DNA of 64,000 bases from Shigella phage SFPB, in the sequence record OQ031072; one strand, given 5' to 3'. Both the position numbers and the translations under genes were made by a program. Numbering within the stretch: position 1 is the first letter of the stretch; each line of letters begins with the position of its first letter. This document shows positions 9,160 through 57,863 of this stretch, piece after piece. The notes beneath the pieces were generated by a model. It saw only the letters and a program-made list of their open reading frames with translations, made no database searches and was not told where the DNA came from.

Positions 9160-10227
9160 ATGGGGCTTTTTCGTATGGAGAGTACAATGGAACAATACAC
9201 CTTAACAAAGCTCCCAGAGAGCGTTACACACGTCTTTATTGACTCTGATAGCATTGCTTACAAAGGTGCTTGTGTAGTTGAAAAAGCAAAGTACAAGTAT
9301 GTGAATAAAATCACTGCTGAAGAATCCGACGCTTTTGATAGTGCAAAACTGGCAGCACAATGGCTGTCTGACCAAAGAGTTTTAACTGAAGAGTTAGGAC
9401 TTGACTTTGATGAAGATGAATGGGAAAGACAGACTTGGAAGGAGGCTAAGAGTGAAGCTGAAGCAATTATGGCTACACAGCAAGTTCTTCAGGAGTGGTT
9501 GAAAGTCGTTGGTAAAGAACGCAAATGGATGGGTTACCTTACTGAGAAAGGTGTTCACAAACACAAGGATATCAAAGGTCTTGAACACCAATATCAAGGT
9601 AACAGAAAAGAAGCTGTAACACCTACACACCTAGTTGCTTGTCGTGAGTATCTTCTGTCACGACCAGAGTTTAAGCTCTTAAAAGGGGGCTTCGAAGCAG
9701 ACTCTATCGTTATTGCAAAAGCTGAGAAGATGGGGAAAAAAGCTGCTCTGATGAGTATTGATAAAGACCTTCGTCAAGCTGAAGGAACTTACTGTATTGA
9801 TATGACTTACGAGAAAGCTCCATTAATTTTCATTGCAGATAATAACGTTGGTGAGATTTGGGATTGCCCTATCAAATCTAAACCGAAAGCTAAGAAGACA
9901 GTCGGAGTAGGTTTTAAATTCCTCTGCTATCAAGCTGTAGCAGGTGATAATGCAGACAACTACTTCGGTTTAAAAGGTGCTGGTAAGGTTGCGGTGATGA
10001 ATGCACTGGAAGGTAAAACTACCTACAAAGAGTGCTTAGATGCCATCTATGAACTTTATGCTAAGAAAGAGTCATACACTTATGAATCGTGGGATGGTCA
10101 GATTGTGACAAGAACTCCACTAGAATTAATGGAGCAACACTTCTGGATTGCTTATCAAGAACGAAATCCTAAAGATGATTTTACGTTTAAAAAATACAAT
10201 TGGGAGCCAGTTATGAATGAAGATTAA
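9160..10227 (+). CDS. 5'-3' exonuclease / flap endonuclease-like
   Basis: HVFIDSDSIAYKG and SIDKDL motifs typical of FEN/T7 gp6-like nucleases; replication-module context. Confidence 0.55.
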   Translation: MGLFRMESTMEQYTLTKLPESVTHVFIDSDSIAYKGACVVEKAKYKYVNKITAEESDAFDSAKLAAQWLSDQRVLTEELGLDFDEDEWERQTWKEAKSEAEAIMATQQVLQEWLKVVGKERKWMGYLTEKGVHKHKDIKGLEHQYQGNRKEAVTPTHLVACREYLLSRPEFKLLKGGFEADSIVIAKAEKMGKKAALMSIDKDLRQAEGTYCIDMTYEKAPLIFIADNNVGEIWDCPIKSKPKAKKTVGVGFKFLCYQAVAGDNADNYFGLKGAGKVAVMNALEGKTTYKECLDAIYELYAKKESYTYESWDGQIVTRTPLELMEQHFWIAYQERNPKDDFTFKKYNWEPVMNED

Positions 10228-10717
10228 AGGATTTGGAAATTGCCCTGTTTATGGACATTGGGTTTCACTGTGCGGGGAAATTGACCCCGCTAACTATTTT
10301 GGTTTTGTCTATTTAGTATACTGTAAGAAAACTGGACAATATTATATTGGGAAGAAACAATTTAATAACGTCACTAAGAAAAAGGTTGCTGGAAAGACCA
10401 GACGTAAAGTCGTGACAAAAGAAAGTGATTGGATGACTTATCAAACATCTTCTGAGTACATTAAGAAGGATATTGAATCTTTTGGTGAAAAAGAGTTTGA
10501 CTTCTACATCATCCAGACTTACTATACGCGAGGTGGCTTAGTTTATGGCGAAGCTAACCTACAACATAAGTTTGACGTCATGACAAAAAGGATTGACTCT
10601 AAGCTTCGACTCTTCTACAATGCGAACATTGCAGCAATCAAGTTTCTTACAAAAGAGACTTATGATGAAGCTGAGAAGAGAATCACTAAAATCATGAAAC
10701 TTAATGAGAGAGTTTAA
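10217..10717 (+). CDS. GIY-YIG endonuclease-like protein
   Basis: GFVYLVYCKKTGQYYIGKK matches GIY-YIG motif. Confidence 0.55.
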   Translation: MKIKGFGNCPVYGHWVSLCGEIDPANYFGFVYLVYCKKTGQYYIGKKQFNNVTKKKVAGKTRRKVVTKESDWMTYQTSSEYIKKDIESFGEKEFDFYIIQTYYTRGGLVYGEANLQHKFDVMTKRIDSKLRLFYNANIAAIKFLTKETYDEAEKRITKIMKLNERV

Positions 10718-10934
10718 AATGTTTAATAAAATCAAAAATGACCATGTTTCTAAAATCCAGAGTGGCGTAGCAGCACTGAAGGAAACTATCAGTAAAGCTA
10801 AGTCAGCTACAGAAGCTGAGATGGATGCTCTGGAATCACAAATTCAACATCTGTTAAGCAAACGTGTTGAACTCAAAGAACGAATGGACTATATTGAGTC
10901 TCAACAAAAGTTGTTTGAAGATAAGGAGGCTTAA
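10704..10934 (+). CDS. hypothetical coiled-coil protein
   Basis: ORF track 76 aa. Confidence 0.4.
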   Translation: MREFKMFNKIKNDHVSKIQSGVAALKETISKAKSATEAEMDALESQIQHLLSKRVELKERMDYIESQQKLFEDKEA

Positions 10935-11689
10935 TGTTTAATTCCAGAGAATCCGTAAGAAATTGGAATCTACGTTGTGGCAATAATCCAAAAGAGCCAT
11001 ACAGTACAGAGTATTGGGAATCACTGAAAAGTCAATCTCTGTGTATGATTGAAGAAGCTAGAGAGTTAGTCGCAGCAGTAGAAGCCAAAGACCCTGTTGA
11101 GACCCTTGATGCTCAAGCTGATTTGCAGTATGTACTTGACGGTTTAATTTTCCTGACACAACATGACCATGATGGTGCTATTAAGGCTGTTTGTGAAAAC
11201 AACAACCTCAAATACACAGATGACTATCAAGAAGCTTTACAGCGAATGTTTGATATTGAGAAACGTACTGGTGATGAATGTTACCTGCGTCAATCAATTA
11301 TTGAAGGTAAAGAGTGGTTTGCGATTATTCGCAAGTCTGATGGTAAGATTATGAAACAGTCTAATCTTCCAAAAGTTCAACTTGAAAGTTTTATTGCAGA
11401 AGTTGACGCAAAAGAATTATTTGTGGTAACATCTGACACATGCGTTATCTGCCAAGGACTGATTGGAAGTCTTGGTAGTCTTGGCATTAAAAACTTTTCT
11501 AAAGTTGAACCAATCTCTTCAAAAGCAGATAAAGACTTCTGCCGTGAGAATGGATTATGGCTTGCGGATATTGTGTACTATGATGGTGAGAAGTTCCATG
11601 TAACCTCATATCCGAAATTGAATTATGATGCAATCAACCTCAAGCAGTGGTTGAAAGGAGTCGGTTATAATGGATTCACAGAACATTAA
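10934..11689 (+). CDS. MazG-like nucleotide pyrophosphohydrolase domain protein
   Basis: N-terminus EEARELVAAVEAKDPVETLDAQADLQYVLDG resembles MazG/NTP-PPase helices. Confidence 0.45.
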   Translation: MFNSRESVRNWNLRCGNNPKEPYSTEYWESLKSQSLCMIEEARELVAAVEAKDPVETLDAQADLQYVLDGLIFLTQHDHDGAIKAVCENNNLKYTDDYQEALQRMFDIEKRTGDECYLRQSIIEGKEWFAIIRKSDGKIMKQSNLPKVQLESFIAEVDAKELFVVTSDTCVICQGLIGSLGSLGIKNFSKVEPISSKADKDFCRENGLWLADIVYYDGEKFHVTSYPKLNYDAINLKQWLKGVGYNGFTEH

Positions 11690-16495: not shown

Positions 16496-18637
16496 ATGGT
16501 TAAAGTACAAATTATTAAGAAAGACGGTTCACTGGAAAAGCCAAACGTAAATAAAATCGTCGAAGCAGTTACCAAGTCAGCTAATAGAGTTGGCTACAAA
16601 GAGTTACCACTAGAAGTTACCCATGCTCTTGAATCAGCCTTTATGAGACTGCTTGTCAGAGCAACTAATCAGAATGCTATGCTCATCTCTGTAGATGATG
16701 TTCACAGTATTGTAGAAGGGACTCTGGCAGAGGTAAACCATGAAATCTATGAGTCATATTCAACCTACAGAAACTATCGTAAAGAGGTTGCACAGAATTG
16801 GGATGAACTTTACCAGAAAACTAAAGACACACTCTTCTTAGGTGACCGTGAGAATGCTAACTTTGACAGTAGCTTAATCTCTACAAAAGGTTCAATCATC
16901 CGTGGATATTTGACAAAAGAAATCTTTAAGCAGTATCACTTGACACCAGAAGAAGCAAGTGCTATTGAAGATGGATTCATTTATATCCATGACTTAAGAG
17001 ACTTAATCTTCGGTGGTATTAACTGTTGCTTGTTTGACATGGGAAGCGTCTTGAAAGGTGGTTTTGAAATGTCAGGCATCGAATACTGTGAACCAAAGTC
17101 TGTACTTTCAGCTTTACAGGTTATTGGTGACGTTGTACTCTCAGCAACTGCACAGCAATTTGGTGGGTTTACTATCCCAGAGATTGACAAGGTTCTTGTG
17201 CCATATGCTAAGAAGTCTTTTGAGTATCATCTGGAGAAAGCAAAGCAGTATAATATCCCAAGTAAAGAAGTATACCACTACGCTAAAGAGCAACTTCAGA
17301 TTGAGCTAACCCAAGGCTTCCAATCTCTGGAAATGAAACTGAATACAGTTCCTTGCAGCCGTGGTGATTTTGCATTCACAACTTTAACGTTTGGTTTACT
17401 CGAACCAGATATGGCTAGTGAAGATAACCGCTTGCAATTTATGATTGCAAAGACTATTCTTGATGTGAGAATGAATGGTCAAGGCAAGTCTAAGAAGCCT
17501 GTTGTATTCCCTAAACTGGTTTACATTTATGATGAGACAAGGCACATGTTAGACCCTTGGCAGGGAACTCTTTATGACAAAGCTATTGAGTGCTGTTCTA
17601 AAGCTATGTATCCAGACTTCTTAAGTGTTTCTGGTCATGGTTCTGTTGCAGAAGCTTTTGAGCGTTCAGGTGCAGTCATCTCTCCAATGGGTTGTAGGGC
17701 TTTCTTATCACCATATTATGATGAAGATGGTAAAGAGTTCTACACAGGGCGAGCAAATATCGGTGCAGTATCTCTTAATCTGCCAATGATTTACAAGTAT
17801 TCTGAAGAGAATGGTTTAGACTTCTGGACAGAACTTGACAAATACCTTGAAATGATTCGAAGCTTCCATAAGAAGCGTTATGAGATGATTGCTAATATGC
17901 CAGCAAGCTCTAACCCTTTAGCTTTCACACAAGGTGGATTGTATAAAGGACATAAGAAGCCAACTGATAAGATTGGTTGGGATACTGTTAAGTCTTTTAC
18001 AGCATCTTTTGGCGTGACCGCATTAGATGAATTAACAGTGCTTGCTCAAGGTAGAAGATTGCATGAGTCTGATGGTGATATTGCAAGCAAGGTTTTAAGC
18101 TATCTGAATAGCAAGCTGGAGCAGTTTAAGCAGGAAGACGGCTTCCTGTATGCACTTTATGGTACACCTGCTGAGAGTCTTTGTGGTACGCAATTGAAGC
18201 AGTTTAGAAATATGTTCGGAGTTGTTAAAGGTGTTTCTGATAAAGAGTACTTTACAAACAGTTTCCACATGAATGTTGGTGCAGACATTACACCGTTTGA
18301 AAAGCAAGACTTAGAAGAACCTTTCTTCCACTCTTGTAATGGAGGCCATATCATCTACTCAAGGTTAGCCAATCCTGAGAACTTGCAAGCTATCAGGGCT
18401 TGTGTAACAAGGGGTATGGGTAAAGGATTCTATCAAGGTATCAACTTTGACTTAGCAATCTGTGAAAATTGTGGTCACAGACCTAACAAAGATGTTGAAC
18501 TATGCCCTAAGTGCAACTCCCATGATATCTCTGTGATTAATCGTGTGTGTGGTTATCTAGGTTGGACTAAGATTAAAGGTACTTCCAGAATGAACGATGC
18601 AAAAATTGCAGAAATCAAGGACAGAGTATGTATGTAA
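16496..18637 (+). CDS. nrdD: anaerobic ribonucleoside-triphosphate reductase (class III)
   Basis: ATG 16496 after AGGAG RBS; N-terminal ATP-cone; C-terminal Zn-ribbon CxxC...CxxC and glycyl-radical RVCGY motif. Confidence 0.9.
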   Translation: MVKVQIIKKDGSLEKPNVNKIVEAVTKSANRVGYKELPLEVTHALESAFMRLLVRATNQNAMLISVDDVHSIVEGTLAEVNHEIYESYSTYRNYRKEVAQNWDELYQKTKDTLFLGDRENANFDSSLISTKGSIIRGYLTKEIFKQYHLTPEEASAIEDGFIYIHDLRDLIFGGINCCLFDMGSVLKGGFEMSGIEYCEPKSVLSALQVIGDVVLSATAQQFGGFTIPEIDKVLVPYAKKSFEYHLEKAKQYNIPSKEVYHYAKEQLQIELTQGFQSLEMKLNTVPCSRGDFAFTTLTFGLLEPDMASEDNRLQFMIAKTILDVRMNGQGKSKKPVVFPKLVYIYDETRHMLDPWQGTLYDKAIECCSKAMYPDFLSVSGHGSVAEAFERSGAVISPMGCRAFLSPYYDEDGKEFYTGRANIGAVSLNLPMIYKYSEENGLDFWTELDKYLEMIRSFHKKRYEMIANMPASSNPLAFTQGGLYKGHKKPTDKIGWDTVKSFTASFGVTALDELTVLAQGRRLHESDGDIASKVLSYLNSKLEQFKQEDGFLYALYGTPAESLCGTQLKQFRNMFGVVKGVSDKEYFTNSFHMNVGADITPFEKQDLEEPFFHSCNGGHIIYSRLANPENLQAIRACVTRGMGKGFYQGINFDLAICENCGHRPNKDVELCPKCNSHDISVINRVCGYLGWTKIKGTSRMNDAKIAEIKDRVCM

Positions 18638-19083
18638 AGGAGCTTCTTTGCTACAATCCAGAAAATGGTGAAATAAGATGGAAGAGTGACGGCAGCCTTG
18701 CTGGAAGTAAAATTTCAGGAGGCTACATTCTCATAACACTTCCAGATGGTTCCAAAGAATATGCTCACAGACTGGCATTCTTACTTATGGGTGAAGAGAT
18801 ACCTGAGTTAGTAGACCACATCAATGGTATTAGAGATGATAACCGTTGGAGCAACTTAAGAAGCTCTAACAAGGTTGATAATGCTTGTAATGCTAAATTA
18901 AGAGATGACAATAAAACAGGGTATAAAGGTATTTCTTGGGACTCTTCGAGAAAGAGGTGGAGAGTTTCAATAACCTATAACAAAAGGACAGTTTCCAAGA
19001 GATTCAAAAACTTTGAAGATGCTGTAGAGTACATGCAAGACTTAAGATTGGAACTTCATTCACAGTACTGTAGGTTCAAATAA
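18628..19083 (+). CDS. HNH homing endonuclease with AP2-like DNA-binding domain
   Basis: VDHINGIRDDNRWSNLR HNH motif; GYKGISWDSSRKRWRVSI AP2-like; inserted between nrdD and nrdG. Confidence 0.65.
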   Translation: MYVKELLCYNPENGEIRWKSDGSLAGSKISGGYILITLPDGSKEYAHRLAFLLMGEEIPELVDHINGIRDDNRWSNLRSSNKVDNACNAKLRDDNKTGYKGISWDSSRKRWRVSITYNKRTVSKRFKNFEDAVEYMQDLRLELHSQYCRFK

Positions 19084-20998: not shown

Positions 20999-21011
20999 AT
21001 GTATATGATTA

Positions 21012-21036
21012 GGGAACTGTAAAAGGTTCCTTTTTA
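21012..21036 (+). terminator. rho-independent terminator
   Basis: GGGAAC...GTTCC hairpin + TTTTTATTTT. Confidence 0.6.
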
Positions 21037-21049
21037 TTTTGGAGAAATC

Positions 21050-21565
21050 ATGTACCATTCAAATCTGAAACGTGCTGCTGCAATGTCTGTTCTTCGTCTT
21101 GATTTTGATGAGCGTCAAGAGTTTATCGATTCACATCAGTATGACCCTTCAAATTCTAACCACATGGTACTTTGGAACCGTGGTAAGTTTCGTGATAGTG
21201 CCTTGTTCCAGTACTACCCTCACTATACTATTGACAACCTCTATGAATACTGTGTTGTCAAGAACACTATTGCAACCCTTAATAAGCTTTGTAGATATTC
21301 TGGAAAGAAAGCTTTCACATTAGGCCACCATAAGCCCGTGACAAAAGGTGGAGAGCACCATTGCTCAAACTGGTTTATCCAGACTCAAGAAGATAACCAG
21401 AAGCAGGGAGAGAAGCTTCCAGAGGCTCCTAAGATGACTTGGGAGGAACAGAAAGCATATCTTAAAAATAATATGCCACCAATGCTTGACAGGGAATATG
21501 CAGTTCTGGCAATATCACTCTTGTTGAAGCTTGAGACAGTTTATGAGGCAACTTATCATGGCTAG
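21050..21565 (+). CDS. HNH endonuclease-like protein
   Basis: LGHHKPVTKGGEHHCSNW resembles HNH core. Confidence 0.4.
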   Translation: MYHSNLKRAAAMSVLRLDFDERQEFIDSHQYDPSNSNHMVLWNRGKFRDSALFQYYPHYTIDNLYEYCVVKNTIATLNKLCRYSGKKAFTLGHHKPVTKGGEHHCSNWFIQTQEDNQKQGEKLPEAPKMTWEEQKAYLKNNMPPMLDREYAVLAISLLLKLETVYEATYHG

Positions 21566-21836
21566 AGAACAATGGGATATCAAAGAGCTAATTAGCGAAG
21601 CTGGAAATGGTAGTGAGATGTATATGATACGTGGTCACGTCCCAGATGCACTTGCTATTGAGATGATAGACCACTACTCCAACGGATTCTATAAAGAGTT
21701 TGGAGAGCCAAATATTGAACGTACTTGGACAAAACCAGTACCAGACGGAACAGGAAACTGTTCAGTTATCTACCATATTGTAGACCCAAAGAAATGTAAA
21801 TCAGCTATGGCTGTAACATTTGTAACTTTTGATTGA
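21531..21836 (+). CDS. hypothetical protein
   Basis: ORF track 101 aa. Confidence 0.35.
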   Translation: MRQFMRQLIMAREQWDIKELISEAGNGSEMYMIRGHVPDALAIEMIDHYSNGFYKEFGEPNIERTWTKPVPDGTGNCSVIYHIVDPKKCKSAMAVTFVTFD

Positions 21837-21846
21837 GAGAAATATT

Positions 21847-22728
21847 ATGAAAACTACTATTCGAGTTCTACTTAATTCAAATTCCAAAGGTTCTCATCAA
21901 GAGACCTTCAACATTATCCAGTTCCCTTCTGGGGAGATTGGTGGTAACTTCTCAGAAGACTTAGTAGACTTTGCTGAACATGCTGCTGGTAAGATTGAAA
22001 ACGTAATATTCACTGTACAAGGTTATGACAAAGACACACTCTTTGCATTGGCTATGGCTAAAGAAGCAATTGACCGTTTGATTCCTCAGAAAGCAACCCT
22101 GAAAACTGTTGTCTTTGGATTCTTACCAAATGCTCGCTATGACCGTCACATGTTTAAAGGTGATGCAGCAGCACTTAAAGTCTTTGCAAATCTTGTAAAT
22201 GCTATGGAGTTCGATGCAGTATGTGCTCTGGATACTCACAGTAATGTTGCAGAGAATTTGTTTAAGAGCTTCTACAACCTCCCTCAAAAAGAGGCAGCAG
22301 TCCACTTTGCAAGTGACCCACGCATTGATTACTTAGTGGCTCCAGATGCAGGTGCAGCTAAGAAGACTGAAGAGGCTGCTAAAGAGGTTGAGAAACCTTA
22401 CATTACAATGGCTAAGGTACGAAACCTGAAAACTGGTGAAATCACTGGTATGCGAATCCTTGATGATGTAGACTTGACAGGTAAGACCGTCATGATTCTG
22501 GATGATATCTGTGACGGTGGTCGAACATTTATCGAGGCTGCAAAGTATCTTCGTGAAGCTGGAGCAGAACGTGTAGAACTGTATGTCACTCATGGGATTT
22601 TCTCTAAAGGTGTTGAAAATCTCCTTGACAATGGTATCGACCATATCTACACTACAAACTCACTAGGGGATGAAAAAGACCGTGGTCTTTCCCACTTCTC
22701 ACAAGTGACCGTAGCAAATATTGAATAA
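21847..22728 (+). CDS. ribose-phosphate pyrophosphokinase (PRPP synthetase)-like; possible ADPR-PP synthetase
   Basis: PRPP-binding loop VMILDDICDGGRTF; ATG 21847 after GAGAG RBS (track start 21829); adjacent to NAMPT-like gene. Confidence 0.7.
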   Translation: MKTTIRVLLNSNSKGSHQETFNIIQFPSGEIGGNFSEDLVDFAEHAAGKIENVIFTVQGYDKDTLFALAMAKEAIDRLIPQKATLKTVVFGFLPNARYDRHMFKGDAAALKVFANLVNAMEFDAVCALDTHSNVAENLFKSFYNLPQKEAAVHFASDPRIDYLVAPDAGAAKKTEEAAKEVEKPYITMAKVRNLKTGEITGMRILDDVDLTGKTVMILDDICDGGRTFIEAAKYLREAGAERVELYVTHGIFSKGVENLLDNGIDHIYTTNSLGDEKDRGLSHFSQVTVANIE

Positions 22729-22772
22729 AAACTTTAGGGGCTGAAAAGCCCCACTTTGAGAGAGATAAAAAG

Positions 22773-24599
22773 ATGACTAAATCAATCTATGCAGTACCAG
22801 CAGGTCTTAATGCAGATGCTTATAAAGCGGGTCATATCTATCAGTATCCAGATGCTACACAGTATCTTATGTTGAACTTAACACCTCGTGGAGATAAATG
22901 GTTTAACTCTCCGTTAGAGATTGATGGTGTTGTAGCTTTTGGTATTCAGCGTTTTGTAAAAGACTATCTGGTAGACCACTGGAATGCAACGTTCTTTGAA
23001 CGTGATAAGAAAGAAGCCATTGACGAAATCTTGGAAATCATGAATGGTGTCCTTGGTGCAGATACTATTGGTCGTCAACATTGGGAAGAACTTCATGACT
23101 TGGGTTACCTACCTGTTGAAGTCTACTCTGTAGAGGAAGGTACAATTGTCCCTATGCGTGTCCCGATGATTGTCTTCAAAAATACTGTAGAGGGATTCCA
23201 TTGGGTAGCTGGTTACCTTGAAGATGCTTTCTCTGCTGAAATCTGGAAAGCTTGTACGATTGCAACTATTGCACTGCATTACAAACGTATTTGTAAGCAA
23301 TGGGCTGATTTAACCTGTGACAACGACTCCCATTTACCTTGGCAGTGTCATGACTTTGCAATGCGTGGCATGTCTGGCTTCACAGATGATGCGTTTAACG
23401 CAGTAGGACACCTGACAAGCTTTAAAGGCACTGACAGCTTCCCTGCTGTCTACACTGCTAAACGTTCTTATGGTCAGTTTATGGAAGTAAGTGATATCGG
23501 CAACTCTGTACCAGCTACTGAACACTCTGTGATGTGCGCAAACATTTCATGGAATATGAAAGACTTGTCAGAGGAAGATATTCATTCACAGTACATCATG
23601 CGGTCTGATAGCTTGCTGGATGCAAAACGTTGGCGTGGTGAGGTTAAAACCTTTGAGCATTTACTGGTAGACGTATATCCAACTGGTATTGCAAGTGTTG
23701 TTTCAGATACTTACAACTTCTGGCGTACTGTTACAGAGATTCTGCCAGAGCTACGTAATGTAATTCTGAATCGTGATGGTAAGTTGGTAATTCGTCCAGA
23801 CTCTGGAGACCCTGTTCACATTGTTACAGGTTACAAAGCCGTTGAATGGGAAACTGCTAAGTCAATGTTCTACAAGCACATGAAAGGTCTTGCACCAGAT
23901 AATACCCATCTGCATGACACAATCTTGAATTGTGAAATGTCTGATATTGGTTTTGGGTTCTCTGCTTGGTTAATCTCTGAAGGTTATGAGATGGTTGTTG
24001 AAAATGAAGATTTTGATTATATTGATACAATCAACCTGATTACCGCTCAGAAAACTGGACAGTTTACTGTGAAGCGTATGTTAACAGCAGAAATTGATGG
24101 AGCTATCCACACGCTGTATAACATATTTGGTGGCACTGTTAACTCCAAAGGGTACAAAGTACTGGATGAGCACATTGGGCTAATCTACGGTGATTCTATC
24201 ACTCTGGAAAGGGCTAATGAGATTCTGTCACGTCTTGCTGATAAAGGTTTTGCAAGTTCTAACGTGGTGTTTGGTGTAGGCTCATATACCTATCAGTACC
24301 TGACCCGTGACACCTTTGCATTTGCTGTTAAAGCAACTCTTGCACAGATGGATGGTCAAGAAATTATGCTGGCTAAAGACCCTAAAACTGACAGTGGTCT
24401 TAAGAAGTCTGCTTTTGGTGGGGTTGTCCCTATGTGGGATGGTGACAAGCTGGTAGCTGTAGATGGTTTTGGATTTGCAGAGTTTGAAGGTGCAATTGAC
24501 AATTGCCATAGTGCTTTGAAACTGGTATTTAGCAATTCACAGGCTTGTAACCGTGTTAACCTGCGTGATGTTCGAAATACTATTGACAAGCAACTTTAA
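22773..24599 (+). CDS. nicotinamide phosphoribosyltransferase (NAMPT/NadV) family protein
   Basis: 608 aa; NAMPT motifs NADAYKAGH and RPDSGDP. Confidence 0.8.
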   Translation: MTKSIYAVPAGLNADAYKAGHIYQYPDATQYLMLNLTPRGDKWFNSPLEIDGVVAFGIQRFVKDYLVDHWNATFFERDKKEAIDEILEIMNGVLGADTIGRQHWEELHDLGYLPVEVYSVEEGTIVPMRVPMIVFKNTVEGFHWVAGYLEDAFSAEIWKACTIATIALHYKRICKQWADLTCDNDSHLPWQCHDFAMRGMSGFTDDAFNAVGHLTSFKGTDSFPAVYTAKRSYGQFMEVSDIGNSVPATEHSVMCANISWNMKDLSEEDIHSQYIMRSDSLLDAKRWRGEVKTFEHLLVDVYPTGIASVVSDTYNFWRTVTEILPELRNVILNRDGKLVIRPDSGDPVHIVTGYKAVEWETAKSMFYKHMKGLAPDNTHLHDTILNCEMSDIGFGFSAWLISEGYEMVVENEDFDYIDTINLITAQKTGQFTVKRMLTAEIDGAIHTLYNIFGGTVNSKGYKVLDEHIGLIYGDSITLERANEILSRLADKGFASSNVVFGVGSYTYQYLTRDTFAFAVKATLAQMDGQEIMLAKDPKTDSGLKKSAFGGVVPMWDGDKLVAVDGFGFAEFEGAIDNCHSALKLVFSNSQACNRVNLRDVRNTIDKQL

Positions 24600-24612
24600 A
24601 ACAGTATGATAA

Positions 24613-24636
24613 GAGGCTCCTACGGGAGCCTTTTTA
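24613..24636 (+). terminator. rho-independent terminator
   Basis: GGCTCC-TACG-GGAGCC + TTTTT. Confidence 0.7.
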
Positions 24637-24640
24637 ATTT

Positions 24641-24868
24641 GTGGAGAAGAATATGAGATTTAACACGGATTTATTTTATACAGATAGCACTGGATTCTTT
24701 GGTGGATATTGTGTAGCATCTTGGCAGTTATGGTTCTCAGAAGAGTACAGGGGTGATATGCAGGTTTTTGTAGAAGATTATAAGTTCCCTACAAAACCTA
24801 CTAAACGCCAGATTAGAAAGCTTCGCAGAGAGTTTCGTAAAACTTGCAAAGGGATTAACAGACTATGA
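24641..24868 (+). CDS. hypothetical protein
   Basis: ORF track 75 aa. Confidence 0.4.
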   Translation: MEKNMRFNTDLFYTDSTGFFGGYCVASWQLWFSEEYRGDMQVFVEDYKFPTKPTKRQIRKLRREFRKTCKGINRL

Positions 24869-32381: not shown

Positions 32382-33176
32382 ATGGGTATCGTAAAAATTA
32401 TTAAAGGTGATATCTTTAAAGACTTTGATGGTAAGAAATTTGATATCATTGGTCACGGTTGCAACTGCATGAACTTGATGGGTGCAGGTATCGCAGCAAC
32501 AATTGCCAAACGTTACCCAAAAGCTTATGAAACTGATGCTGAAGTTTATGCTACAGTAGGTGGTGAAAATCATAACCCTAAGCATCTAATGCTTGGTAAC
32601 ATCTCTGTAGCACGTTTTAAGCAGGGTCGAATTGCTAACCTTTACACTCAGGTTATCACTGGCAAAGATGCACGATACAACGCCTTAGAAGCAGCTTTAC
32701 AGCGTCTTAACAACTACTGTAAAGTTAATCAACTTAAGAAAGTTGGACTTCCTATGATTGGTGCAGGGATTGGTGGTCTTGACAGCATGGCTGTGCTGTC
32801 TATCATCAATCAGACCATGAAAGATGTTGACGTTTATATGTATGTCTATGAAGATAAGATGTACAGTCAGTTGACTAGTCCGGTTACTGGTTGGGAAAAC
32901 TTTAGTGAACCTCAATACTTTGATGGTGTTGCCGTGGTAGGCAAGGATAAAGTTACTCTCAAGGTGAAGCGTAATGGTAAGGTACACACCAGTTACCCTC
33001 CGGTTGATAAGTACAATCGAAGTAACGCTCAAGTTACCCACCCGTTACAAGGCCATTGTCACAGAGCCGTAACATTTGGTGATGATGCAAGTGTGTATAT
33101 CGGTGCTGCTACAGAAGAGTTTGCAGAGGATTATATCACACATGAGAATGTTAACTATGTTGAAGCACGTAACTAA
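32382..33176 (+). CDS. macro-domain (ADP-ribose binding/processing) protein
   Basis: GDIFKDFDGKKFDIIGHGCNCMNLMGAGIAATI matches macro-domain GDIT...NAAN...GGGV core; ATG 32382 (track start 32325 overlaps upstream ORF). Confidence 0.5.
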   Translation: MGIVKIIKGDIFKDFDGKKFDIIGHGCNCMNLMGAGIAATIAKRYPKAYETDAEVYATVGGENHNPKHLMLGNISVARFKQGRIANLYTQVITGKDARYNALEAALQRLNNYCKVNQLKKVGLPMIGAGIGGLDSMAVLSIINQTMKDVDVYMYVYEDKMYSQLTSPVTGWENFSEPQYFDGVAVVGKDKVTLKVKRNGKVHTSYPPVDKYNRSNAQVTHPLQGHCHRAVTFGDDASVYIGAATEEFAEDYITHENVNYVEARN

Positions 33177-56664: not shown

Positions 56665-56670
56665 AATATT

Positions 56671-56746
56671 AGCAGTGTAGCATAACTGGAAATGCACCAG
56701 CCTCTGAAGCTGAAAGATTAAGGTTCAAATCCTTATACTGCTGCCA
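56671..56746 (+). tRNA. tRNA-Gln (anticodon CTG)
   Basis: Acceptor AGCAGTG/TACTGCT; loop CTCTGAA; G73; CCA. Confidence 0.55.
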
Positions 56747-56777
56747 CTTCTAAGGGTTCTTACGAGAGTCCTTAAAT

Positions 56778-56854
56778 GTGGCCTTATCATAAATGGATAA
56801 TGACCCATGCTGTGAACATGGTCTATACGGGTTCGATTCCCGTAGGTCACCCCA
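56778..56854 (+). tRNA. tRNA-His (anticodon GTG)
   Basis: Anticodon stem CCATG/CATGG, loop CTGTGAA; C73; CCA. Confidence 0.6.
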
Positions 56855-56861
56855 ATTTAAT

Positions 56862-56937
56862 AGCTCAATTAGCTTATATGGTTAAAGCGCGTGTCTGAAA
56901 AACATGAGAACAGGGTTCAAATCCCGATGGGCTACCA
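56862..56937 (+). tRNA. tRNA-Phe (anticodon GAA)
   Basis: Loop CTGAAAA; A73; CCA; T-stem weak. Confidence 0.5.
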
Positions 56938-56953
56938 ACTTTATAGGTGCATA

Positions 56954-57688
56954 ATGAAAGAGATGACAGAACAAAGTAAAGAGATTTTTAATCTCCTTAA
57001 AACCGGTAATGGTTTCTCAAACCCTCTTATTACTGGTGCAGCAGTTCTTGGTGGTACAGTTGCCGCTTCTCAGTCATTAGTAACTTCTATTGGTTCTGTA
57101 TCAGACCCAGCCACACAGCAAATTCTTATTGCTGCTGGACTGACAACAGCCTTATTAGGAAGCTTCACAACAAGCCTTGGAAGTACAACTTCAACGACAA
57201 GTACACTCACTGAGTATGGACAAAAGTCTGTAGATGAGTTTTCACAGCGTATGCAGGTAGCTAAAGGCTACTCTAACGTCATGGGAGCAGTAGGTGAGCA
57301 AGTTGGATGTACACCATTTAGTGGCATTATGGGTGTAGCTACTGAGTACGGCAATAAAGCGATGGATTTGATTAATACCTCCATAGACGCTGTAAACAGC
57401 GTTCTAAGCGATTTGCAAGATGCAATCGATAAAGGACTAGGGACAATCTCTGAACTCGCTACACAGGCTGTTACAGCGATTAATGAGGGCATTGCAAAGA
57501 TTACTGCATATGCTAACGAAGTAGCTCAGATGATTGCAGATGAAGCAGCATTGATTGCAGAATACCTGAAAACAAATATTAATGGTTTCCTTGCAAATGT
57601 TCTACCAAGCTGGTTTGATGATTCATGTAAAACTGGTGTGATTGATACTATTGCAACTCCAGAGATGAAAGAAGCTCTGAACAAATAA
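56954..57688 (+). CDS. hypothetical Ala/Ser/Thr-rich protein with N-terminal hydrophobic segment
   Basis: ATG 56954 just after tRNA-Phe (track start 56891 overlaps tRNA). Confidence 0.45.
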   Translation: MKEMTEQSKEIFNLLKTGNGFSNPLITGAAVLGGTVAASQSLVTSIGSVSDPATQQILIAAGLTTALLGSFTTSLGSTTSTTSTLTEYGQKSVDEFSQRMQVAKGYSNVMGAVGEQVGCTPFSGIMGVATEYGNKAMDLINTSIDAVNSVLSDLQDAIDKGLGTISELATQAVTAINEGIAKITAYANEVAQMIADEAALIAEYLKTNINGFLANVLPSWFDDSCKTGVIDTIATPEMKEALNK

Positions 57689-57689
57689 T

Positions 57690-57781
57690 GGAAGATTAAC
57701 CCTAAAGGTAAGGGAGCAGTTTGCTAAACTGCCAGTAACCGAGAAATCGGCGTACCAGTTCAAGTCTGGTATCTTCCTCCA
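57690..57781 (+). tRNA. tRNA-Ser (anticodon GCT), long variable arm
   Basis: Acceptor GGAAGAT/ATCTTCC; anticodon stem GCAGT/ACTGC, loop TTGCTAA; CCA. Confidence 0.6.
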
Positions 57782-57787
57782 AATTAT

Positions 57788-57863
57788 GTGTCGGTGTCAG
57801 AAATGGTTATGTGCCTGTCTGCAAAACAGGTTTATGAGGGTTCGAGTCCCTTCCGATACTCCA
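57788..57863 (+). tRNA. tRNA-Cys (anticodon GCA)
   Basis: Anticodon stem CCTGT/ACAGG, loop CTGCAAA; U73; CCA. Confidence 0.6.

Follow-up and report, generated by a model that had tools for sequence, protein, structure and literature searches.

The two adjacent genes at positions 21847–24599 of Shigella phage SFPB (sequence record OQ031072) very probably constitute a NARP1 counter-defence operon, consisting of a Prs-family enzyme, Adps, and a NAMPT-family enzyme, Namat. The DNA that was analyzed (64,000 nucleotides, the window) covers about 64 of the approximately 88–90 kb of the genome of this phage, which is a Felix-O1-like member of the Ounavirinae, genus Mooglevirus. The remaining 25 kb or so probably comprises the structural module, as judged from synteny with Escherichia phage JohannRWettstein (Bas63). 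NARP1 is already known in this gene lineage. The operon formed by gp79 and gp80 of Bas63 is the one in which NARP1 was discovered, and the SFPB genes belong to the lineage that is the founding example of the system. Orthology, synteny, diagnostic motifs, and fold are established here for the SFPB pair, and we infer by analogy that the two enzymes behave like their orthologues in both chemistry and phenotype.

Organization of the adps-namat locus

An ORF scan identified one + strand ORF at 21829–22728 and a second at 22773–24599. The likely start codon of adps is the ATG at 21847, which gives a protein of 293 residues (21847–22728). A GAGAGA ribosome-binding site lies 8 nt 5' of this ATG, and the stop codon of the preceding ORF falls just before it. 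The initial annotation had described a Prs-family ORF directly upstream of a 608-residue NAMPT-family ORF, and this arrangement was found as described. The two genes are adjacent on the + strand with a spacer of 44 nt, and all of the quoted strings are present. The PRPP-binding loop string, VMILDDICDGGRTF, occupies residues 215–228 of the Prs-family protein, while NADAYKAGH and RPDSGDP occupy residues 13–21 and 341–347, respectively, of the NAMPT-family protein. The features of the locus are as follows.

21050–21836, + strand: two upstream ORFs of 171 and 92 residues, conserved in Bas63
21847–22728, + strand: adps, predicted ADP-ribose pyrophosphate synthetase of the Prs family, 293 residues (orthology to Bas63 gp79, model scores)
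22737–22752, + strand: hairpin GGGGCT-GAAA-AGCCCC in the adps-namat spacer, with a GAGAGAG ribosome-binding site after it
22773–24599, + strand: namat, predicted nicotinamide ADP-ribose transferase of the NAMPT family, 608 residues (orthology to Bas63 gp80, fold, motifs)
22890–22922, + strand: selectivity-clamp loop (SCL), GDKWFNSPLEI, of the Bas63 type with K followed by W
23538–23645, + strand: Namat insertion 1, residues 256–291 (alignment with other Namats)
23835–24101, + strand: Namat insertion 2, residues 355–443, a predicted folded α/β subdomain
24279–24311, + strand: selectivity-clamp helix (SCH) signature GSYTYQYLTRD, matching the Namat-specific consensus
24611–24634, + strand: terminator-like hairpin with a T-run, 12 nt 3' of the namat stop codon (consensus scan)
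32382–33176, + strand: Macro-domain protein of the Adpp/Tk.4 "phosphatase" family (Pfam, phrog_335), unlinked and a candidate accessory only

The stem of the intergenic hairpin is kept in Bas63 and ESh19 with a different loop and different flanks, and the hairpin may contribute to RNA stability or serve as a partial terminator. The site equivalent to the terminator-like hairpin after namat is an annotated terminator in Citrobacter phage Mordin. Upstream of adps, the ORFs of 171 residues (phrog_3500, with a weak HNH-like match) and 92 residues (phrog_4726) have conserved counterparts in Bas63, gp77 and gp78. They sit between a terminator-like site at 21011–21032 and adps, and the consensus scan detected no terminator in between; these two ORFs are possibly co-transcribed with adps-namat.

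The gene order nrdG, small ORFs, adps, namat, small ORFs, rIIA, and rIIB is common to SFPB and Bas63. The two operons also have in common their spacing, the intergenic hairpin, both insertions in Namat, and the SCL and SCH motifs. Bas63 is a Felixounavirus, whereas SFPB is a Mooglevirus; in SFPB, insertion 1 is 15 residues longer and a DUF7279 ORF follows namat.

Assignment of the two proteins to Adps and Namat

The family assignments made in the initial annotation are supported by matches to Pfam, TIGR01251, NF006629, and PHROGs. The Prs-family protein matches Pfam Pribosyltran/Pribosyl_synth, TIGR01251, and phrog_619. It is 81% identical, without gaps, to Bas63 gp79 and 99.7% identical to the KPS64 protein, an Adps listed in Table S1 of Osterman et al. 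and flagged there as having a Namat within 10 genes (bioRxiv 10.1101/2024.02.11.579819). On NCBIfam models, the protein scored with the published Adps proteins and far below E. coli Prs. With TIGR01251, the score was 131.7 bits, compared with 98–139 bits for the Adps proteins from ICP1, SPbetaL1, and Bas63 and 422.7 bits for E. coli Prs. The broad TIGR01251 cutoff of 113 bits is thus exceeded, but the scores required by the curated Prs models are not reached (107.8 versus 296 bits for NF002095 and 99.9 versus 297 bits for NF002320); E. coli Prs scores 532.6 bits on NF002320. The identities and model scores indicate that the SFPB protein probably belongs to the Adps group and not to canonical Prs.

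Lys-190 of SFPB Adps aligns with the catalytic lysines of the ICP1 (K185) and SPbetaL1 (K162) enzymes. Residues R97, H131, D167, D219, D220, and D223 match the acceptor residues R87, H121, D161, D212, D213, and D216 of ICP1 Adps. Since most of these residues are also found in Prs, they demonstrate catalytic competence and not substrate specificity. The C-terminal helices of Prs (the α11–α12 regulatory/filament module of PRPS) are missing from SFPB Adps, and the alignment stops about 19 residues short of the C-terminus of E. coli Prs, as it does for the Adps proteins from ICP1, SPbetaL1, and FADO. The adenine-contact residues F18 and F92 of ICP1 Adps align with H17 and M102 of SFPB in a poorly aligned region, where the SPbetaL1 and FADO enzymes also differ. 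In addition to the catalytic lysine, the acceptor Arg/His/Asp residues, and the loss of the helices, the Adps from Vibrio phage ICP1 (PMC13586617) has the DDICDG start of the PP loop in common with SFPB. The two proteins are 31% identical, and the PP loop of ICP1 reads CDGGRT against CDGAAS in SFPB.

The NAMPT-family protein matches Pfam NAPRTase and NAMPT_N, NF006629 (470 bits), and phrog_448, and it is 74% identical to Bas63 gp80. The catalytic core is conserved (D15, Y17, F195, R198, D221, A248, H251, R341, D343, G473, and D474), and the set of contacts to nicotinamide, ribose, and AMP is conserved in full. The AF2 model of SFPB Namat has a pLDDT of 92.1, and its best match in the PDB is the crystal structure of SPbetaL1 Namat (9w5x/9w5w), with a TM score of 0.94. 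The Namat-specific SCH consensus has been described as GS-X-φ-X-φ-X-φ-TRD, in which the adenine-stacking positions are aromatic, and this motif is reported to be absent from Nampt (PMC12774641). In SFPB, the SCH is found at residues 503–513, and Y505 and Y509 align with F392 and Y396 of SPbetaL1 Namat. In the SCL, the published stacking residue is either an arginine at position 3 or the residue that follows a Lys/Tyr; for Bas63 Namat, the residue after the lysine is reported to stack on the adenine. The SFPB loop begins GDKWF where that of Bas63 begins SDKWF, with the same arrangement of K followed by W, and by this likeness it would be expected to supply the stacking residue as well.

The two-gene architecture, the catalytic core, the SCH, and the fold are common to SFPB and Bacillus phage SPbetaL1 (PMC12774641), whereas SPbetaL1 Namat has 491 residues, does not contain either insertion, and carries Arg40 in the SCL in place of Lys42-Trp43, and the Adps proteins are only 31% identical. 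The initial annotation had proposed that the pair fits the NARP1 architecture. That proposal is upheld by orthology and synteny with Bas63 gp79-gp80 and by the signatures of Namat.

A true PRPP synthetase followed by a true NadV would instead convert ribose-5-phosphate and nicotinamide to NMN, and host NadR or PncC/NadD would complete the formation of NAD+. The annotations in Pfam, PHROGs, and GenBank read in this way, the broad TIGR01251 cutoff is passed, and Namat enzymes retain some PRPP-dependent synthesis of NMN in vitro (PMC12774641), so that a minor Nampt-like contribution may remain. E. coli Prs and NadV/NAMPT also have the same folds and most of the catalytic residues in common with the SFPB pair. 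We nevertheless regard this explanation as very improbable. SFPB Adps is only 25% identical to E. coli Prs, is truncated at the C-terminus, and falls far short of the Prs model scores; the adenine-binding SCH motif is present in the transferase; and the characterized orthologues use the other substrate. In particular, the SPbetaL1 Adps converts ADPR and ATP to ADPR-PP, whereas the control assay for PRPP-synthetase activity showed no product, and SPbetaL1 Namat is reported to prefer ADPR-PP over PRPP. The Bas63 operon overcame SIR2-HerA even in a host without pncC and nadR, with accumulation of ADPR-PP (bioRxiv 10.1101/2024.02.11.579819).

Proposed function in the reconstitution of NAD+

As a NARP1 operon, the SFPB pair would act once NAD+ has been cleaved to ADP-ribose and nicotinamide by an NADase defence of the host, such as SIR2-HerA/Nezha, DSR, type I Thoeris, Kongming, or SPARSA. 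Adps would transfer the β,γ-pyrophosphate of ATP to the terminal ribose of ADP-ribose to form ADPR-PP. Namat would then exchange the pyrophosphate of ADPR-PP for nicotinamide, giving NAD+ directly without the participation of NMN or the salvage enzymes of the host. The activities of NARP1 enzymes have been published for homologues from SPbetaL1, ICP1, DyoEdafos, and P. foliorum; for Bas63, they were shown in vivo. For Adps, the biochemistry was obtained with the enzymes of SPbetaL1 and ICP1, each only about 30% identical to the SFPB protein. ADPR-PP was first detected with the Bas63 operon and was seen only when the operon was present, and deletion of the operon gave approximately 20-fold fewer plaques on SIR2-HerA (bioRxiv 10.1101/2024.02.11.579819). 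In the same work, the Namats of Sf17, Mordin, Michonne, and Moogle are tabulated as "Adps-associated," and relatives more than 90% identical to the SFPB genes are already entered as Adps or Namat in its supplementary tables.

The operon lies among genes for nucleotide metabolism (ribonucleotide reductases, a dNMP kinase, and a MazG-like protein), and a DNA ligase is encoded by this phage family. The two enzymes might belong to general auxiliary metabolism and, whenever the phage infects, top up the NAD+ used by DNA ligase and in nucleotide metabolism, with no role in counter-defence. This reading is very improbable, since Bas63 infection without a defence system gave neither excess NAD+ nor ADPR-PP, because the substrate ADPR arises only after NAD+ is cleaved, and the phenotype of the Bas63 deletion was specific to the host that carried the defence.

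The initial annotation recognized no NMNAT-like gene nearby, and this remains true over a wider search: neither the ten flanking ORFs nor 29 further ORFs of at least 140 residues in the 64-kb window contained an NMNAT, NadR, PnuC, or Nudix domain. Phage homologues of Nampt that function without Adps are known, but a salvage route of the NARP2 or NARP3 type (a NAMPT-like enzyme working with an NMNAT of phage origin, the arrangement of KVP40, or a pair resembling PnuC and NadR) is scarcely credible for SFPB, given that scan of 64 of the 88–90 kb, the adps gene directly upstream of the transferase gene, and the label "Adps-associated" given to close relatives in the published table of the Namat tree. 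NARP2 of Vibrio phage KVP40 (Nampt and Nmnat/Nudix) likewise restores NAD+ from nicotinamide with an enzyme of the NAMPT fold; it starts from PRPP and requires an NMNAT, whereas the SFPB transferase carries an adenine clamp. NARP3 consists of a PnuC-type transporter and a NadR-like RNK-NMNAT, and the scanned SFPB ORFs gave no such Pfam matches.

Namat insertions and an unlinked Macro-domain protein

The NARP1 system of the Ounavirinae may extend beyond its two-gene core through a Macro-domain protein acting in trans and through the insertions that flank the active site of Namat, a possibility that we put forward tentatively and consider rather unlikely. The NAMPT-like protein had been noted to be about 100 residues longer than usual, suggesting insertions. 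Two were located, at approximately residues 256–291 and at residues 355–443, which together account for about 110 extra residues relative to the 491-residue SPbetaL1 Namat and the 496-residue bacterial homologues; both are also present in Bas63 Namat, and both adjoin segments of the active site. Insertion 1 directly follows the catalytic-histidine segment, ATEHSVMCAN. It is missing from the Namats of SPbetaL1, ICP1, and FADO, and relative to Sf17, Mordin, and SUSP1 it is hypervariable (61% amino acid identity with dS of 0.6–1.1, against a core that is 95–96% identical). Insertion 2, which separates the RPDSGDP strand from the helix after it, is predicted to form a confidently folded α/β subdomain. 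It is restricted to the Namats of the Ounavirinae in a sequence search, is only 44–47% identical between SFPB and Bas63, and gave no match in Pfam or the PDB. These lineage-specific insertions could alter the access of the substrate, whether as a lid, as a docking surface, or as a regulatory module.

The protein encoded at 32382–33176 matches the Pfam Macro family (8e-8) and belongs to phrog_335, which also contains the validated Adpp from Vibrio phage Gary; the two proteins are 30% identical (E = 3e-17). The SFPB protein has invariant columns in common with the operon-linked Adpp proteins, and its orthologue in Bas63 is gp95. In the NARP1-AP system of phage Gary (bioRxiv 10.64898/2026.01.28.702374), the operon is Adps-Adpp-Namat; SFPB has Adps and Namat and also encodes this candidate member of the Adpp family. 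In SFPB, however, the Macro gene lies outside the operon, some 7.7 kb downstream with many genes in between, and its product is extended at the C-terminus by about 100 residues. No Macro-domain gene was found in the ORFs neighboring adps-namat, where the NARP1-AP criterion is a distance within 2 genes, and phages that lack NARP1 commonly encode members of the family. From its sequence relationship to Adpp, the unlinked protein could dephosphorylate ADPR-1''-phosphate in trans, as a "split" NARP1-AP. Such an arrangement would have gone uncounted in the published surveys because these considered only genes within 2 genes of the operon; if it is real, it would let these phages defeat aRES-type defence.

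Adps-Namat pairs linked to NrtR were also observed on enterobacterial chromosomes. These pairs, the Macro protein, and the insertion domain of Namat could extend a very active field in modest but testable ways.

The finding is mainly a correction of annotation. All of the GenBank relatives examined that annotate the pair name it "ribose-phosphate pyrophosphokinase" and "nicotin(ate/amide) phosphoribosyltransferase." The corrected assignment matters when Felix-O1-like therapeutic phages are chosen or engineered against Shigella, E. coli, Citrobacter, and Salmonella hosts in which SIR2, DSR, or Thoeris systems are present.

Assignment of the gene pair to NARP1

Two successive ORFs on the + strand were located by ORF scan at 21829..22728 and 22773..24599, the second of which encodes 608 aa. 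The start of the first is likely the ATG at 21847, which is preceded by a GAGAGA ribosome-binding site and by the point at which the ORF before it terminates; this assignment gives a protein of 293 aa. The 293-aa protein was matched to Pribosyltran/Pribosyl_synth in Pfam, phrog_619 in PHROGs, and TIGR01251 in NCBIfam, and the 608-aa protein to NAPRTase and NAMPT_N, phrog_448, and NF006629, respectively. These results bear out the initial annotation of a Prs-family ORF directly upstream of a 608-aa NAMPT-family ORF, and the motif strings cited there were all found in the window proteins.

The pair is NARP1, a system that is already known and of which the present lineage is the founding example. 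NARP1 was discovered in the gp79-80 operon of Escherichia phage JohannRWettstein, or Bas63 (bioRxiv 10.1101/2024.02.11.579819). The window Adps is 81% identical to Bas63 gp79 (293 aa each, gapless), and the window Namat is 74% identical to gp80 (608 versus 593 aa). Bas63 lacking gp79-80 forms ~20-fold fewer plaques on SIR2-HerA cells, and the deletion lowers NAD+; ADPR-PP (m/z 720.010) was seen only when the operon and the defence system were present together, and the operon was still effective in a host without pncC and nadR (bioRxiv 10.1101/2024.02.11.579819). The biochemistry was done with the SPbetaL1 homologues because the Bas63 protein purified poorly. SPbetaL1 Adps converts ADPR and ATP to ADPR-PP and yielded nothing in the PRPP-synthetase control assay, and SPbetaL1 Namat converts ADPR-PP and nicotinamide to NAD+, with ADPR-PP favoured over PRPP.

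By megablast, the pair and the surrounding 25 kb are 94-98% identical in nucleotide sequence to phages of the Ounavirinae that infect Shigella (ESh19, Sf14, and Sf16-Sf19) or Citrobacter (Mordin and Michonne); three of them, ESh19, Sf17, and Mordin, are assigned to Mooglevirus. Mooglevirus and Suspvirus genes are already in the supplementary tables of the discovery paper, where the transferases of Sf17, Mordin, Michonne, KPS64, and Moogle are labelled "Adps-associated" and the KPS64 Adps, 99.7% identical to that of the window, is flagged as having a Namat within 10 genes (bioRxiv 10.1101/2024.02.11.579819). Since the genes of close relatives are listed as Adps and Namat, the window pair is a catalogued NARP1. 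The proposal that these two genes could rebuild NAD+ by the NARP1 route was thus right, given the Bas63 orthology, the catalogued relatives, and the Namat and Adps signatures described below.

Signatures of Adps and Namat

The catalytic lysine aligns with K190 of the window Adps (K185 in ICP1, K162 in SPbetaL1), and the acceptor residues R97, H131, D167, D219, D220, and D223 are retained. The protein is without the C-terminal helices of Prs. The aromatics that contact adenine in ICP1 Adps, F18 and F92, are opposite H17 and M102 here, in a stretch where the alignment is weak. Against the NCBIfam model TIGR01251, the window Adps (131.7 bits) scored with the published Adps proteins (Bas63, 138.5; SPbetaL1, 106.0; ICP1, 98.2) and far below E. 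coli Prs (422.7); all of the Prs-specific NCBIfam cutoffs are far above its score.

According to a 2026 structural study, Namat is distinguished from Nampt by a selectivity-clamp helix, which follows the consensus GS-X-phi-X-phi-X-phi-TRD and has aromatics that stack on the adenine of NAD+, and by a variable clamp loop that adds a further stacking residue (PMC12774641). The helix motif of the window Namat is GSYTYQYLTRD (aa 503-513), and its clamp loop, GDKWF, is of the Bas63 type. Residues that contact NAM, ribose, and AMP in SPbetaL1 Namat are all identical or conservatively replaced in the window protein, where they include the catalytic His251 and R341/D343. An AlphaFold2 model from a 40-sequence alignment (mean pLDDT 92.1) matched best the SPbetaL1 Namat crystals 9w5x/9w5w (TM 0.94 on target), with HdNadV and human NAMPT ranking below.

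A literal PRPP synthetase paired with NadV is contradicted by the model scores of the window Adps and the adenine clamp of the window Namat, as it is by the Bas63 genetics and metabolomics and the SPbetaL1 enzymology. Membership in NARP2 (Nampt and Nmnat) or NARP3 (PnuC and a NadR-like protein) is excluded within the window, where the corresponding domains were found in none of the ten neighbours or the other 29 scanned ORFs, each 140 aa or longer, in agreement with the earlier remark that no NMNAT-like gene is nearby; the ~25 kb of genome beyond the window corresponds in Bas63 to the structural module.

Insertions in the Ounavirinae Namat

The extra length of the window Namat had been attributed to insertions, and two were located relative to the SPbetaL1, ICP1, and FADO Namat proteins and the 496-aa bacterial homologues:
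aa 256-291 (window 23538-23645, + strand): insertion 1, after the catalytic-His segment
aa 355-443: insertion 2, between the RPDSGDP strand and the following helix

Insertion 1, which is 15 aa shorter in Bas63, is a hypervariable patch. ESh19 has the identical sequence, but identity falls to 61% with Sf17, Mordin, and SUSP1, whereas the core around it is 95-96% identical to the same three, with dS values of 0.6-1.1 and 0.17-0.33, respectively. This low identity and high dS against a conserved core suggest a small mosaic replacement. Insertion 2 was found by tblastn only within Ounavirinae Namat genes (254 records). The model of its fold is of high confidence (pLDDT of about 90-96 within the full protein and 88.7 alone) and starts with one strand, which is followed by three helices, a pair of strands, a fourth helix, and a last strand. 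Its sequence has diverged more quickly than that of the core (44-47% versus 84% identity to Bas63), although dN/dS values of 0.14-0.26 among close relatives show purifying selection.

Other Gram-negative myophage Namats have insertions of different length at the same two sites. Because both sites follow strands with substrate-contacting residues in the sequence order, the two insertions would be on the catalytic face. They are compatible with NARP1 function, since the Bas63 protein has both and works in vivo. The structural study aligned Bas63 Namat and did not discuss the insertions (PMC12774641).

Locus organization and related genes

The window gene order is nrdD, nrdG, small ORFs, the adps-namat pair, small ORFs, rIIA, and rIIB. 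The layout of Bas63 (MZ501086) is the same from nrdG to rIIB, with several small ORFs before and three after gp79 and gp80, which are annotated as "ribose-phosphate pyrophosphokinase" and "nicotinamide phosphoribosyltransferase". The features of the region are:
10217-10717, + strand: SegE-like GIY-YIG endonuclease
10934-11689, + strand: MazG-like pyrophosphohydrolase (phrog_2144)
18628-19083, + strand: candidate HNH-like ORF immediately 3' of nrdD, recognized by eye only
21011-21032: terminator-like hairpin 5' of the upstream ORFs
21050-21565, + strand: conserved 171-aa ORF (phrog_3500, weak HNH-like match)
21558-21836, + strand: conserved 92-aa ORF (phrog_4726)
22737-22752: hairpin GGGGCT-GAAA-AGCCCC, rich in GC, within the adps-namat spacer of 44 nt
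24611-24634: terminator-like hairpin 3' of namat
24641-24868, + strand: 75-aa DUF7279 ORF 3' of namat, absent from ESh19
32382-33176, + strand (open frame from 32325): Macro-domain member of the Adpp/T4 Tk.4 "phosphatase" family (phrog_335)

The ORFs at 21050-21836, conserved as the gp77/gp78 pair in Bas63, lie 3' of the first terminator-like hairpin and 5' of adps, and may share a transcript with NARP1. The stem of the spacer hairpin is kept in Bas63, with a different loop and flanks, and a terminator is annotated in Mordin at the position equivalent to 24611-24634. The locus is an insertion hot spot at which gene insertions are tolerated: Mordin has two extra 150-aa ORFs 5' of adps (locus L009, 348-1276), and in SUSP1 an HNH endonuclease separates adps and namat (locus L010, 1237-1728). 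Beyond the pair, an array of 25 tRNA genes (52101-57863, + strand) covers 19 amino acids, with no tRNA-Tyr or tRNA-Trp.

Among bacteria, the window Namat has its nearest homologues in Klebsiella, Phytobacter, and Kosakonia; these proteins are 496 aa long, have the Namat motif, and are encoded 3' of an Adps-like gene beside a divergent NrtR-type regulator. In a Klebsiella huaxiensis-type chromosome (L011, 4217-7491), an NrtR-like gene (NUDIX and WHD_NrtR) diverges from genes for a 284-aa Adps-like protein, 46% identical to the window Adps and 30% to E. coli Prs, and a 496-aa Namat-like protein with the motif GSFTYQYNTRD; NrtR-linked pairs are also found in two further chromosomal loci (L012 and L013). 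ADP-ribose is a signal to which NrtR responds, and this would be consistent with an induction of NAD+ reconstitution by ADPR. Bacterial NARP1 was reported previously, and the arrangement suggests ADPR-responsive NARP1 loci in Enterobacteriaceae chromosomes.

Neither NARP1-AP (NARP1 with the Macro-domain phosphatase Adpp) nor RyDEP-type extensions were found among the operon neighbours. The Macro gene is unlinked, 7.7 kb downstream of the operon, and has an orthologue in Bas63 gp95. Its product shares a PHROG with the Adpp of Vibrio phage Gary, a validated ADPR-1''-phosphate phosphatase (30% identity, E 3e-17), and agrees with the operon-linked Adpp proteins at the alignment positions that do not vary among them; its extra C-terminal ~100 aa have no Pfam match. 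It would have escaped the Adpp survey, which extended only to within two genes of NARP1 (bioRxiv 10.64898/2026.01.28.702374). The Macro protein could give a split NARP1-AP, a functional link offered only as a hypothesis because the Tk.4-like family is very widespread and is also common in phages without NARP1. With the NARP1 system itself already known, the two mildly novel angles are the uncharacterized insertion subdomain of the Ounavirinae Namat and this possible Adpp acting in trans.
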